A DNA stretch of 64,000 nt from Minisyncoccota bacterium (GCA_028704755.1 JAQWEU010000002.1:1-64000); one strand, 5' to 3'. Shown: positions 59,562 to 64,000, counted from the first letter of the stretch. The notes: generated by a model from the letters alone, not told the origin. A program made the numbers and translations.

Positions 59562-59951
59562 ATGAATAAAAGTTTTTATAAGAAACAGTTTTTAGCAAAA
59601 GACATTATAAAAGCCTTGTATAACGAGGATAAAAGGGTTAATAAGGGCAAAAACAAGCCATTAAAGCTATTTTCTTGTGAGGAATTTGCTTTCTTAAGAG
59701 GCTTGATCTTTGGAAAAGGGAACAAGAATACTTTATTCTTAGCCCTAGATCATATTAGTGAAAGACATTTACAGGGATTTGGATTCTCAAATACTGCCTC
59801 GCTGAGGAGAATATTATTCTTCCAGTATTACCTAAGTAATAACGGAAACGCTGCCAAGGCAGCCATCCTAGCAGGTTATAGTCCTAAAGCAGCTAAGCAG
59901 CAGGGGTATAGGATTTTAAAGTGGATACAAAAAGAATTAAGCTTGGAATAA
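59562..59951 (+). CDS. Protein with a phage terminase small subunit-like HTH (Terminase_2-like) C-terminal domain
   Basis: 129 aa. RRILFFQYYLSNNGNAAKAAILAGYSPKAAKQQGYRILK matches the hallmark LF-EYL---NAT-AAI-AGYS-K-A---G--LL of terminase small subunits. Confidence 0.5.
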   Translation: MNKSFYKKQFLAKDIIKALYNEDKRVNKGKNKPLKLFSCEEFAFLRGLIFGKGNKNTLFLALDHISERHLQGFGFSNTASLRRILFFQYYLSNNGNAAKAAILAGYSPKAAKQQGYRILKWIQKELSLE

Positions 59952-59955
59952 TCAG

Positions 59956-62556
59956 CTACTTAATAGGTTTTAAGATATTTTTAGCTTTTTTGGGTTTGAG
60001 AAGATTAATAAGAGAGTCGATATCAAGATTATTTTCTTTAAGTTTAATAATTGCACTCGATCTCCATGCAAGATCTCCGGGGGCAACGAATGATGTTCGC
60101 AAATCTCTAATAACAGCAATCGCATTATGGGCCCATTGCTTGAAATCATCTAAATCCCACAATAAAGTATCTTCTAAAAGACTAACTGCTGTCTCTTTTA
60201 CATTTTTTGATGGAGTGATTAGTACAGGAAAAATAGCTGATTCTTTATCCTTAAGAATGTTTTCGCGTACCCACAATGGATGAGATGCTACTTGACGAGC
60301 TTTATTAACGCTAATAGGTGTCTCTGGCTTAGCACTTGAATTATCTTCAAATATCAAGCACTTATTTGCATTAATCCACCATGGATCTGGAGAGCCATCG
60401 TTTTCTTCGTTGCCAGCTTCTAGACCTATTAGTCTTCCTAAAAGAACATGGGCGTTTTCAAAAATGTTTGCATTATCGGATTCAATTCCTTCAAGTATCT
60501 CTTTTTCATAATTTGCGTAACGATTAGTATAGGTTGTGCCTAGGCTTGCAAGGGTAAGTTCTAATCGCTCTATTTGTTCATTTATAGCATTATTAACCTT
60601 ATCTTTTTCACTAATTTGTTCGTTAGAAAATTGGGAAAGTGTTACTAGCCAGGAGACAGCTTGGGCTGCTTTTTTCGCAAGAGAAAATTCATCTCTCGAA
60701 CGAGTTATTAATGAGGTATTTTGCTTTGATGCCACTGCTAGCCATGCAGCACTTCCCGCAAGGTAATGCCAAAGTGCACGATATCCTTTCAGTTCAGAAG
60801 ATTTTAATTCTGATAAAACAGCATCAGCGCTTTTTAAAGCTGCTTCATAATCCTTTTGCCAAATATGTCTCTCATATTCTATTTCTTTTACTACGGCTAG
60901 TTGCAGCTCGTCTATAGCAGGGAATTGGTTTTGATTCGCTCCTTCTCTTAATGCTACGATTTGCTGACTAACCTCCTCCCAAGTTTTTCCATTTTCTAAA
61001 AAAATATTAACATTTTCGATAATATCATCTATATTTATGTTTTTTGATTGTTCGATTCCAAAATTTAATTCAGCCTGAAGCTCTGGATGAAAGTATTGTA
61101 TGTTGGTTTTATTGATTAAGTAATCCAATAATTCATTCCCAGAAATAACAACAGTCGAATAATCTTCAAGCGATCTTGTACATCGTCCAATTGCTTGCAA
61201 TACTCTTGTTTGAATTCTTTCATCAAACAGTATACTTGCACCCATTCTAGACATTATAAATTGTTCTTGAGTGTTTGTGGACCTTGGCAATCCTTCGACA
61301 AATAAAAGCCTGCATTCATCTCCTGAAAAATCTACTCCATCATAGCGATTTGCCATTATTGCAATAGCCTTTTTTGTTTTAGTAAAAACTTTTTTTGTTT
61401 TTTGAATGTCGCTAGCTGTAAATATTTTATAACCAATAGTTTCTTCAATCTCATCTTTAATCTCGCTACAAGATTTTAAATTTGGAACCAAGACAAGACT
61501 TCTGTCAGTTTGCTGCATTAGTTCATGATTTAGTCTTCTTGTATCGTTTTCATTAAGAGACATTTCTGGAAAAACGAAAAATCTTCGCCCAACACCGTGA
61601 TTGTCAGCTCCTTCTGGAGTAGCTAATTTCTTTATTGAAGATCTTCCTGTTAATCGCTCAATATCTCCGCCCTTGCTTAATGTTGCGGACATGTATATTC
61701 TTTGCTTCGGATTTGTAAACGCTTCATGAGTCCATGTAGGAGGTATGAGAGGCCTAATCAATATTTCTTGGGAGGAATAATAAAGATGACAAGAGCAAAG
61801 GTTGTCCCTAATCATATTCCAAGGATAAATTAAATCAGTATTTTTTGTATGAATATCAAGCACTTCAATTATTTGATCAATTATTTTAAAATACTGAGGA
61901 GTTGGTAATTTATCTACCCAAACTCCCCCTGCTGGATCTGGAACTTCTCCAATTAAGCGAGTGTAGGTATAAGAGGCAAGCAAAGGTTTTAATAGTGCGC
62001 ACAGGGCACTGTGAATTGATTTATGCTCATCGCTCATTCTTTGAATTCGGATAGACCAGAGATTAGAAATATATGACTCGGCTGCATGTACATCGTCTAG
62101 GATTATAATATCAGGATCATTAAAAAAAGGGTTTGTATTAAATAAACTACTATAGGTTGAAATGGCCATACTTTCTCCTCTTTTATAGGATGTAGTAGCT
62201 ACAACATCATAATCTTTACTTGCACCGGTAAAGCCATTGACTATTAGTCCATATTTTTCATTTGCTTGTTCAACAACTTGATTGACAAGTTGTTTTGTTG
62301 GCACTAAATAAACTATTTTATCATTAAATTTTCGCCTTCTCCATTCTCCAATCATTAACCCAACTAAAGTTTTACCGCCTCCGGTAGGGAGTTGAAGCGC
62401 AATATCTTTCTCATGTAATGCATTTAAAGCATAATCTTGCATCAGTTTTTCTTGATAAGCAAGAGCACCAAAGAATTTACGACGAGGAAGATCTCGAATA
62501 ATTTTTTCTGGACTATTTGGAACAACGCTTGAATGTTCAATATTTTTGAATGCCAT
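59956..62556 (-). CDS. Superfamily-2 helicase, DinG/Rad3(XPD)-like motifs, with a ~450-aa C-terminal domain of unknown function
   Basis: 866 aa. Motif I LQLPTGGGKT, motif II IIILDDVHAAE, motif III IYMSATL, Rad3-like motif V RYDGVDFSGDECRLLFVEGLP, motif VI QAIGRCTRS. Confidence 0.75.
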   Translation of the reverse strand: MAFKNIEHSSVVPNSPEKIIRDLPRRKFFGALAYQEKLMQDYALNALHEKDIALQLPTGGGKTLVGLMIGEWRRRKFNDKIVYLVPTKQLVNQVVEQANEKYGLIVNGFTGASKDYDVVATTSYKRGESMAISTYSSLFNTNPFFNDPDIIILDDVHAAESYISNLWSIRIQRMSDEHKSIHSALCALLKPLLASYTYTRLIGEVPDPAGGVWVDKLPTPQYFKIIDQIIEVLDIHTKNTDLIYPWNMIRDNLCSCHLYYSSQEILIRPLIPPTWTHEAFTNPKQRIYMSATLSKGGDIERLTGRSSIKKLATPEGADNHGVGRRFFVFPEMSLNENDTRRLNHELMQQTDRSLVLVPNLKSCSEIKDEIEETIGYKIFTASDIQKTKKVFTKTKKAIAIMANRYDGVDFSGDECRLLFVEGLPRSTNTQEQFIMSRMGASILFDERIQTRVLQAIGRCTRSLEDYSTVVISGNELLDYLINKTNIQYFHPELQAELNFGIEQSKNINIDDIIENVNIFLENGKTWEEVSQQIVALREGANQNQFPAIDELQLAVVKEIEYERHIWQKDYEAALKSADAVLSELKSSELKGYRALWHYLAGSAAWLAVASKQNTSLITRSRDEFSLAKKAAQAVSWLVTLSQFSNEQISEKDKVNNAINEQIERLELTLASLGTTYTNRYANYEKEILEGIESDNANIFENAHVLLGRLIGLEAGNEENDGSPDPWWINANKCLIFEDNSSAKPETPISVNKARQVASHPLWVRENILKDKESAIFPVLITPSKNVKETAVSLLEDTLLWDLDDFKQWAHNAIAVIRDLRTSFVAPGDLAWRSSAIIKLKENNLDIDSLINLLKPKKAKNILKPIK

Positions 62557-62878
62557 ATTTTAGTAATTATTTATTGTATTAAATAAACAATATCAAATTA
62601 TTTGGTAATTTGTAAGGCCTTAAAATAAAAAGGAGGATGCTGCAATAAATCATTAGAGACTCATAGATATTTTGATAGGCAATAACAAATTAAAGAAATT
62701 ATTAAAAGGATTTTAAATTCCAAAGACGATTCCAGAACATATTTAGTAATAAGGGAATTATTATCAGTGCAGTTTTTAGTTAAATAAAGAGAGGGGTGTA
62801 TAATTAAATACTGCTGGCAGTATGGCATGAACGGTTGAAAATATTCTAAAAGGTGGTTATGATTGACTTATAATTGAC

Positions 62879-64000
62879 ATGATCAATAAAGAAGCGCAAG
62901 CAAGAATAAAAATCAACAAACTTCTCGAAGAGTCAGGGTGGCGTTTTGAAGATAGCGAAAAGGGCAAAGCTAATATTCAACTTGAGTCAAATATTAAGTA
63001 TTCTGAACTTGGGAATGATTTTGAAAATGAGACACACGGTTTCATTGATTTTCTTTTGCTTGATAAAGATGGTCGCGCACTAGTTGTAGTTGAGGCAAAG
63101 AGGGAGTCAATAGATCCTTTATCGGCCAAAGAACAGGCAAGGAATTATGCTCGTAATATTGGCGCTAGATTTATTATTCTTTCTAATGGGAATATCCATT
63201 ATTTTTGGGATATCAAACATGGAAACCCTGATACCATTTCACGTTTTCCAACACAAGACTCGATAACTCAGTATGAAAAATATACACCGAACCCTGAGGA
63301 ACTTGCTCAAACCTTTATAGATGAAAACTATATCGTCGCAACACAGCTACCTAATTTTGCAAATGACCCAGACTTTAAAAACGAATCCACGAGATCAGAT
63401 TTTTTGAGGAATAATAGGCTTAAGCAACTTCGACCATATCAAGTACAAGCAATAAAAGCACTTCAGGAGTCAGCAAAGGAAGGTAATCAGAGGTTTCTTT
63501 TTGAAATGGCAACAGGGACTGGTAAGACTCTAATATCATCGGCCGTTATTAAGTTGTTTCTAAAATCAGGCAACGCTCGTCGTGTTCTATTCCTTGTCGA
63601 CCGTTTAGAGCTTGAAGATCAGGCATTTAAGGCCTTTAGGGATTATCTTGGACATGACTTTAATACTGTTATTTATAAGGATAGTCGTGATTCCTGGCAA
63701 AATGCCAGCATTGTTGTTTCTACTATCCAAACTTTTATGTCGGGAGACCGTTATAGGAAAGAATTTTCACCTACAGACTTTGAATTAGTTATTTCAGATG
63801 AAGCTCACCGATCAATCGGAGGCAATAGTCGTGCAGTCTTCGAATATTTTGTAGGATATAAGCTTGGTCTTACAGCTACTCCTAAGGATTATTTAAGAGG
63901 ATTTGATGTCGAAGGCATAGATACTCAAAGAGAGTTCGAGAGGCGTCAGTTGCTTGATACTTATAAGACTTTTGGTTGTCCGGCAGGGGAGCCAACCTTT
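62879..64000 (+). CDS. hsdR: Partial (continues past the window) restriction endonuclease R-subunit-like protein: HsdR_N-type PD-(D/E)xK nuclease domain plus SF2 helicase (type I HsdR or type III Res-like)
   Basis: Manual translation from ATG 62879: N-terminus GFIDFLLLDKDGRALVVVEAKRES (PD-ExK), then LRPYQVQAIKAL, Walker A MATGTGKTL, DEAH-like ISDEAHRS, and TATP-like GLTATPKD. No stop before 64000. Confidence 0.7.
   Translation, partial: MINKEAQARIKINKLLEESGWRFEDSEKGKANIQLESNIKYSELGNDFENETHGFIDFLLLDKDGRALVVVEAKRESIDPLSAKEQARNYARNIGARFIILSNGNIHYFWDIKHGNPDTISRFPTQDSITQYEKYTPNPEELAQTFIDENYIVATQLPNFANDPDFKNESTRSDFLRNNRLKQLRPYQVQAIKALQESAKEGNQRFLFEMATGTGKTLISSAVIKLFLKSGNARRVLFLVDRLELEDQAFKAFRDYLGHDFNTVIYKDSRDSWQNASIVVSTIQTFMSGDRYRKEFSPTDFELVISDEAHRSIGGNSRAVFEYFVGYKLGLTATPKDYLRGFDVEGIDTQREFERRQLLDTYKTFGCPAGEPTF

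Follow-up and report, generated by a model that had tools for sequence, protein, structure and literature searches.

The stretch of DNA considered here comprises positions 59562-64000 of a window of 64,000 nt (the whole stretch that was analysed), taken from a metagenome-assembled genome (MAG) of Candidatus Pacebacteria, a member of the candidate phyla radiation (CPR). At its centre lies a gene for an 866-aa helicase-nuclease of the Hna anti-phage family, placed between the gene of a 129-aa protein (p129) and a divergent HsdR-like restriction gene. A check of open reading frames (ORFs) and motifs found all three ORFs, as well as every helicase motif quoted in a preliminary description of the locus, present as claimed:

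59562-59951, plus strand: ORF of the 129-aa protein p129.
59956-62556, minus strand: Hna-family helicase-nuclease gene (hna), 866 aa, a putative single-gene anti-phage system of the lysine-relocated clade.
62557-62878: divergent spacer between the helicase and HsdR-like genes, 322 nt, 26% GC.
62879 (ATG) to the window edge at 64000, where it runs off, plus strand: HsdR-like gene, first 374 of 852 codons in the window.

The p129 and helicase genes are convergent, their stop codons being separated by 4 nt (59952-59955). The earlier placement of p129 "upstream" of the helicase is correct in plus-strand coordinates only, as the p129 gene stands at the 3' end of the helicase gene.

The Hna family of anti-phage helicase-nucleases has already been characterised, and the 866-aa protein belongs to it as a distant member. 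Two PADLOC models of PDC-S28 cover the whole length of the protein (aa 12-858, E 6e-107; aa 5-851, E 1.7e-103), the next PADLOC match, CRISPR type IV DinG, being far weaker (E 3e-15), and a genome survey of Bacillus cereus has identical proteins called PDC-S28 by PADLOC and Hna by DefenseFinder (PMC11811056). The reference protein, S. meliloti Hna (SMa2245, pSymA, 845 aa), was recovered from a plasmid collection (L002:2827-5364) and scores 1020 bits on the PDC-S28 model PDLC04986; an hhalign comparison with a profile of 28 relatives of the window protein gave a probability of 99.9% over 715 columns at 22% identity. The best sequence matches in the Protein Data Bank (PDB) were 10UJ, 9YHN and 9YKJ (phmmer against 10UJ, aa 48-504, E 1.6e-26; profile search, E 1.3e-49), all of which are cryo-electron microscopy (cryo-EM) structures of Hna (Hooper et al. 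2026). The same family was retrieved by structure: a Foldseek search with the AlphaFold2 (AF2) model of the whole helicase protein (predicted local distance difference test [pLDDT] 82.9, predicted template modelling score [pTM] 0.79) returned 9YHN, the "Hna monomer", first (E 2.5e-34, TM 0.60/0.63) and chains of the Hna dimer next (9YKJ, E 1.2e-26), with XPD and DinG trailing at ~1e-11. The helicase had been put forward as a new module, a suggestion overtaken by the published genetics, biochemistry and cryo-EM structure of the Hna family (= PDC-S28); its description as DinG/XPD-like is supported, and so, probably, is that as a stand-alone defence gene.

The protein is built from three parts, of which the nuclease domain carries the feature that sets this clade apart (all on the minus strand):

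61042-62556 (aa 1-505), minus strand: HEL1 + HEL2 ATPase core of superfamily 2 (SF2), DinG/XPD-like, supported by Pfam and by phmmer against 10UJ.
62368-62391 (aa 56-63), minus strand: Walker A, LPTGGGKT (PTGGGKT at aa 57-63).
62086-62097 (aa 154-157), minus strand: DDVH.
61681-61689 (aa 290-292), minus strand: SAT.
aa 404-424, minus strand: quoted motif RYDGVDFSGDECRLLFVEGLP.
61171-61197 (aa 454-462), minus strand: motif VI, QAIGRCTRS.
60490-61041 (aa 506-689), minus strand: all-helical linker/scaffold (AF2 helices at 491-691; aligned by hhalign to the same part of S. meliloti Hna).
59959-60489 (aa 690-866), minus strand: C-terminal PD-(D/E)XK nuclease domain.
60376-60393, minus strand: P723-D724.
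60340-60351, minus strand: F-E737-D738-N739, with Asn at the canonical Lys position.
60292-60303, minus strand: K752-A-R-Q755, with the relocated Lys.

In the ATPase core, Pfam recognises DEAD (E 9e-14), Helicase_C_2 of the DinG/XPD type (E 1.5e-11) and ResIII (E 3e-11), and the glutamine of the Q motif, Q35, is invariant in the clade. Cysteines occur only at positions 186, 254, 256, 363, 415, 459 and 733, and none lies between Walker A and motif II (aa 63-154); the places that hold the cysteines of the iron-sulfur (Fe-S) cluster in XPD and DinG have none in the window protein, which lacks such a cluster, as reported for Hna. What had been listed as an uncharacterised C-terminal domain of ~450 aa turns out to be the helical linker (~aa 506-689) followed by the nuclease domain (~aa 690-866), which adopts a PD-(D/E)XK fold in a model with a pLDDT of 93.

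In profile, pairwise and multiple alignments, P723, D724 and E737 of the window protein are kept and N739 stands in place of K729 of S. meliloti Hna, so that the canonical set of the latter (P712, D713, E727, K729) is incomplete, lacking the counterpart of K729. An exhaustive HMMER search yielded 2,250 clusters at E <= 1e-3, 814 of them at E <= 1e-30, and 138 full-length proteins, made up of 50%-clustering representatives from this search, plasmid homologues and S. meliloti Hna, were aligned. They divide as follows at the two lysine positions (window protein numbering):

Position 739 not Lys (H 28, Y 13, N 8, F 1): n = 50; Lys at 752 in 50/50.
Position 739 Lys: n = 87; Lys at 752 in 1/87, the others having D/T/H/E/N/A and further residues.
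Neither lysine: n = 1 (P0270); Lys at 752 in 0.

The mutual exclusivity of K739 and K752 has a Fisher p of 7e-37, a statistic that ignores phylogeny, and the coupling is partly phylogenetic. In a crude neighbour-joining tree of the helicase part the lysine swap is not monophyletic (at least 6 changes by Fitch parsimony), but such a tree is not to be trusted at 30-50% identity and we base no claim on it. K752 lies three residues ahead of Q755, on the helix next after the ExK strand; D724 is invariant, while P723, E737 and Q/E755 are conserved in both lysine groups, E737 being missing only in P0270. A 40%-identical homologue from a Clostridium sporogenes plasmid still has EDK, with H at the helix position. 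Taken together, these sequence patterns suggest an active site that is intact but rearranged, with K752 as the likely substitute for the ExK lysine. Such a move has a precedent in the superfamily, as in Pa4535 (PDB 1y0k) the lysine has shifted to the second core alpha-helix, an arrangement termed "PD-EXX-K" (Steczkiewicz et al. 2012, PMC3424549); what is new here is the apparent shift of the catalytic lysine, strictly coupled between the two positions, in a large Hna clade. As a separate observation, P0270 (37% identity to the window protein) is the one family member with a lysine at neither position and without the catalytic glutamate ("RDI...E"), and is a candidate for a truly degenerate nuclease domain.

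Hna by itself protects against diverse tailed phages through abortive infection (PMC13381803, PMC12445080), and the S. meliloti protein works alone when moved (PMC12445080). The latter is a Mg2+/Mn2+-dependent 3'-5' exonuclease of single-stranded DNA (ssDNA), in which P712, D713 and E727 are metal ligands and the K729A substitution leaves no nuclease activity; ATP binding stabilises an autoinhibited homodimer through T30, D31 and P34 of a HEL1 loop, and phage single-stranded DNA-binding protein (SSB) breaks this dimer and unleashes the nuclease (PMC13381803). From the homology with this enzyme, we infer that the window protein is likewise a stand-alone abortive-infection enzyme of the Hna type, combining an SF2 ATPase without an Fe-S cluster, a helical linker and a PD-(D/E)XK nuclease. 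Its resting state would most likely be ATP-bound and nuclease-silent; release could come from a phage product (phage SSB in the studied case) or from accumulating ssDNA, whereupon DNA would be degraded from 3' single-stranded ends and phage replication stopped at the cost of the cell. The active site would retain D724, E737 and Q755, with N739 (H/Y in relatives) at the place of the ExK lysine and the invariant K752 supplying the missing group in a "PD-ExX-K" arrangement.

Homologues of 43-62% identity are found in CPR bacteria (Saccharibacteria, groundwater MAGs), Proteobacteria including Vibrio parahaemolyticus, Acidobacteriota, Chloroflexota, Cyanobacteria, Planctomycetota and Bacteroidota, and on an IncC plasmid, a patchy spread typical of a horizontally moving defence gene. 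The genes adjoining Hna in 73 loci include type I S and M subunits, type II methylases, SIR2-APAZ-pAgo fusions, PDC-S65, mads genes, helix-turn-helix (HTH) regulators and integrases, and no neighbour of Hna is conserved across 80 + 8 loci, a pattern of gene order that would be consistent with autonomous single-gene action. The seven closest relatives with readable context differ in their relation to restriction-modification (RM) genes:

L173: Hna start 1 nt past a complete type IC operon.
L174: Hna start 2 nt past a complete type IB operon.
L175: Hna start 24 nt past a complete type IB operon.
L176: Hna after a type II cluster, co-directional.
L177, L178, L179: no RM genes.

Large serine recombinases lie within a few kb of Hna in four of these seven loci (L173:556-1839, L174:13270-14970, L175:12619-14337, L178:7488-9056), and another lies equally close to a relative of p129 (L180:11339-12946); elements mobilised by serine recombinases in CPR genomes may carry the islet as cargo. 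Two further contexts were noted in the wider clade. In a Planctomycetota/Acidobacteriota sub-clade of lysine-relocated Hna, an ORF of ~1054 aa encoding a SIR2-APAZ-pAgo fusion begins between -25 and +76 nt relative to the stop codon of Hna (L056:12686-15880, L064:3208-6387, L068:12616-15774, L078:12616-15780, L088:12616-15780), and the pairing of Hna with a short prokaryotic Argonaute (pAgo) is recurrent. On the IncC conjugative plasmid pKAZ2 (KR827391.1; L003, 8001-14288), a 50%-identical, lysine-relocated Hna (EDY...K) adjoins a RecN-like ATPase and UvrD-like helicase pair resembling Gabija, with a tyrosine integrase upstream, and this region is a compact plasmid defence island.

The divergent gene had been described as an HsdR-type restriction subunit, and this is supported by an N-terminal PD-ExK nuclease (ID...VEAK) followed by an SF2 motor (Pfam HSDR_N_2, E 3e-10; ResIII, E 3e-40; PADLOC REase_I, E 7e-51). 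The NCBIfam model of the EcoAI-family R subunit gives 219.5 bits, under its cutoff of 550 bits, and leaves the C-terminal 260 residues unmatched. The Logan contig L001 (7,591 bp) is 100% identical to window positions 59367-64000 and reaches the equivalent of window position 66957; beyond the window it carries the rest of the 852-aa HsdR-like gene, 4 nt, and then a 479-aa SLFN_AlbA_2 + HATPase_c_4 gene with weak PDC-S50 and Argonaute-associated matches, and it ends 76 nt past this AlbA_2 gene (the NCBI contig measures 66,959 bp). R proteins of 67-80% identity are very common across CPR bacteria, Moranbacteria, Paceibacterota, Azambacteria and Roizmanbacteria among them. In these relatives the next gene encodes a fusion of 805-850 aa, in which a type I methyltransferase (aa 2-446) is joined to a specificity subunit with two target recognition domains (aa 450-800). 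Among the 83 R loci examined, this M.S gene was seen in 78 of the 79 that have at least ~300 nt after R, the exception, L096, ending inside an inserted gene of 272 aa. The genes seen in the position after R are as follows:

L096:12561-13379, L109:4739-5548, L126:2597-3418, L127:2728-3549: R-adjacent insert of 269-273 aa, the PADLOC candidate PDC-S22 (E 5e-124).
L170:6596-7471: 291-aa Bro-N-like gene between R and M.S.
L001:77-1516: AlbA_2/HATPase_c_4 gene in the post-R slot of the window's contig.

The M.S gene follows the PDC-S22 insert in L109, L126 and L127. Because PDC-S22 and Bro-N-like inserts recur at this junction, it is a recurrent cargo slot. An M.S gene to go with the window's R gene is likely beyond the contig end. 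Judged from its relatives, the HsdR-like gene is probably the R subunit of a very common CPR two-gene system resembling type I (R plus fused M.S). The preliminary description had set its defence-module proposal against an ordinary RM system combined with a housekeeping DinG; the former probably describes the HsdR-like gene, while the latter does not describe the helicase. The layout of ~850-aa R plus fused HsdM-HsdS recurs among L090-L172 (e.g., L090:10001-14975, L091:10001-15115, L092:10001-14994), with variable genes after M.S: Abi_C, SMODS + DUF6602, or RelA_SpoT-like.

We put at about 0.85 the probability that the window protein is a stand-alone Hna-type enzyme with a relocated lysine, located beside a CPR RM system but not tied to it. 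Several observations speak against this assignment: (i) K729A abolishes the nuclease of S. meliloti Hna, so nuclease activity in the clade would depend on the role proposed for K752; (ii) the HEL1-loop residues T30, D31 and P34, as well as R36, are not conserved in the clade, which has LPRRK...HQ instead; (iii) the window protein reaches only ~350 bits per PDC-S28 model, as against 1020 for S. meliloti Hna, which marks a distant clade; and (iv) the M.S gene of the window's restriction system is not visible before the contig ends. Since the residues of the N-terminal dimer/SSB interface are not conserved, the trigger, regulation and gating may differ from those of S. meliloti Hna, and the ~350 bits obtained on each of the two PADLOC clade models would make the window protein's group a third clade beside both. 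The loss of the lysine at position 739 (N in the window protein, H/Y/N/F across the clade) could also mean that the protein is a nuclease-dead or repurposed relative, serving as an ATPase, sensor or decoy only, or as a recruiter of another effector; the effect of the equivalent K729A substitution and the decay seen in P0270 would fit. We regard this as unlikely, since D724, E737 and Q755 stay invariant and K752 is present in all 50 swapped proteins but is D/T/H/E/N/A in others, which argues for selection on an intact active site, and since lysine migration onto the identical helix is documented in the superfamily (PMC3424549) and the model of the nuclease domain is confident. A prophage remnant, consisting of a small terminase and a phage helicase, is quite improbable: the NCBI label of p129 is indeed "terminase small subunit", and PHROG assigns phrog_51 to p129 and phrog_16128 (unknown function) to the helicase, but the match to the terminase model is confined to its HTH, genes for TerL, portal or capsid are missing from the vicinity, and the relatives of p129 sit in small non-phage clusters with a serine recombinase. 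Least of all can a housekeeping repair helicase of the DinG/XPD type be expected here, in spite of the Helicase_C_2 and Rad3-like motifs and the secondary fold matches to XPD/DinG structures, given the missing Fe-S cysteines, the C-terminal nuclease, a score of 18 bits on the NCBIfam rad3 model against a cutoff of 247, the scattering at ~50% identity over CPR, Vibrio, cyanobacteria and IncC plasmids, and the location in a low-GC islet beside RM genes.

The neighbourhood of restriction genes raises a different possibility, namely that the helicase-nuclease is wired to the neighbouring restriction system as a fail-safe, like PrrC-EcoprrI, and fires when restriction is blocked. Five of the eight closest homologues with readable context, the window counted, touch an RM system, with Hna following type I operons at 1, 2 and 24 nt (L173, L174, L175), co-directional with the type II cluster in L176 and divergent from the R gene in the window. 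We nevertheless consider such coupling unlikely. Four different kinds of RM system occur as partners (type IC, type IB, type II with C5 methylases, and R + M.S), which speaks against a specific protein contact; S. meliloti Hna alone suffices when moved (PMC12445080); and defence genes cluster generally. When the window's R, AlbA_2 and p129 proteins were compared by tblastn with the 80 Hna-clade loci, R-like sequences were found in 2 and AlbA_2 and p129 in none, and six type I queries had matches within 10 kb in 6 of the 80; conversely, no Hna gene occurred near any of the 83 R-gene loci. A conserved Hna-R linkage was rejected on these counts, and they do not support the specific helicase-RM partnership (the RM-associated module) that the preliminary description had named as one option. 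The frequent RM adjacency near the window's sub-clade is read as defence-island or operon hitch-hiking, not as a dedicated partnership. It is conceivable, if hardly probable, that in the nearest sub-clade Hna is co-transcribed with restriction operons as a fail-safe that fires when restriction fails, and that a lysine on a mobile helix could gate the nuclease differently from the ATP-dimer switch. On the preferred reading of an autonomous enzyme, Hna, the R gene and p129 merely adjoin one another within a defence islet and do not form parts of a single machine.

The 129-aa protein matches Pfam Terminase_2 (E 9e-8, 33.3 bits against a cutoff of 26.1) over aa 85-120, corresponding to positions 7-41 of the 141 in the profile, and phrog_51 matches the identical stretch. 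The C-terminal HTH signature of small terminase subunits reported for p129 is therefore present; the oligomerisation core, neighbouring phage genes and a link to Hna elsewhere are not, p129 occurring in none of the other Hna or R loci examined. A search of 5.8 billion proteins yielded only 4 relatives, three of them being 80-86 aa long with little beyond the HTH, and the 55%-identical relative P0392 sits on the margin of a group of unknown genes spanning ~5 kb, at whose end lies a serine recombinase gene beside smpB. A terminase function was rejected on the HTH-only match, the 4 relatives and the lack of phage genes; from its sequence and those of its relatives, p129 is probably a small DNA-binding protein of an integrative or mobile element. 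Two copies of an 18-nt motif accompany the convergent pair:

59533-59550, plus strand: 18-nt motif TAAATAATTACTAAGATA (= TAAATAATTACTAARATA), 12 nt 5' of the p129 ATG; inverted repeat I6.
62556-62573, minus strand: second 18-nt copy, TAAATAATTACTAAAATA, ending at the A of the Hna ATG; inverted repeat I6.

The sequence, of the form TAAATAATTACTAA(G/A)ATA, thus stands just 5' of the start codons of both p129 and hna. These are the only two perfect copies in the 64-kb window, where 0.05 would be expected at up to 2 mismatches, and the Hna ATG has no recognisable Shine-Dalgarno sequence. The motif may be a shared operator or promoter control element.

A defence islet had been proposed at this place, and the proposal is supported; the islet is small and low in GC: the GC fraction is 0.349 in p129, 0.352 in the helicase gene and 0.344 in the AlbA_2 gene, compared with 0.398 in the rest of the window and 0.427 in the preceding gene (overall, 34-38% GC in the islet genes versus 40% in the rest of the window and 43% in the preceding surface-protein gene). 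Neither tRNA genes nor, in a repeat search, direct repeats resembling attachment (att) sites flank the islet, and an Rfam scan of 59000-64000 returned a sub-threshold osmY match only. One promoter-like site lies in the divergent spacer:

62835-62863: promoter-like TTGAAA-17-TATGAT, 16 nt 5' of the hsdR-like ATG, a consensus match only.

The count of promoter-like sites was not above chance in the promoter scan; terminator-like sites numbered 6, versus 2.0 +/- 1.5 expected. To the left, window positions 55257-59345 (plus strand) encode a secreted protein of 1362 aa, in which two repeated lamin-tail-like segments are accompanied by a long acidic linker of low complexity, a type typical of CPR surface proteins; a hairpin with a T-run (~59353-59382) closes this gene and marks the left edge of the islet.

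To conclude, the defence gene at this locus is of a known kind, though its active site is a variant one, and it stands next to an RM gene that is ordinary for CPR bacteria. This removes a false lead, as a name, a structure and a mechanism are already on record for the "unknown C-domain helicase", and it documents a presumed abortive-infection gene of the Hna type beside a restriction system in a reduced-genome CPR bacterium. About one-third of the nearest Hna-family clusters (50 of the 138 sampled) are without the lysine that the sole biochemical study used as its nuclease-dead control, which cautions against calling such homologues inactive or missing them by motif-based rules. The strictly coupled lysine on the next helix provides a well-defined example, open to testing, of how a catalytic residue may migrate within a single defence family.

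Compared with known systems, p129 shares with the small terminase of phages (Terminase_2) an HTH of ~36 residues, but carries it at the C-terminus, without oligomerisation and TerL-binding parts and outside any phage context. The 852-aa HsdR-like protein has the N-terminal PD-ExK nuclease and SF2 motor of EcoAI-like type IB HsdR, yet it falls below the equivalog cutoff with 260 C-terminal residues unmatched, and the partner in its relatives is a single fused HsdM-HsdS, unlike the separate M and S subunits of type I RM. The helicase shares with ExoDinG, DinG and XPD the fold of two RecA-like domains and the Helicase_C_2 signature, whereas it has no Fe-S domain and stands in a defence-island context; ExoDinG, moreover, bears an N-terminal DnaQ-like exonuclease, where the window protein has a C-terminal PD-(D/E)XK nuclease. 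The pattern of lysine migration proposed for the window protein is also that of Pa4535, an unrelated small protein. The closest counterpart is S. meliloti Hna, which has in common with the window protein (i) a single gene of similar length (845 versus 866 aa) and identical domain order; (ii) a HEL1-HEL2 SF2 core without an Fe-S cluster, a reduced arch, a helical linker and a C-terminal PD-(D/E)XK nuclease; (iii) Walker A, DExH, motif VI, the Q-motif glutamine, the PD, the E of ExK and the helix Q; and (iv) a patchy, horizontally transferred distribution. The two differ in that they are only ~22% identical, that the window protein's host is a CPR bacterium, that the window protein does not keep the residues which form the N-terminal dimer/SSB interface in S. 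meliloti Hna, and that the catalytic lysine, which lies in the ExK strand of S. meliloti Hna (K729), is replaced there by N739 in the window protein and has apparently become K752.

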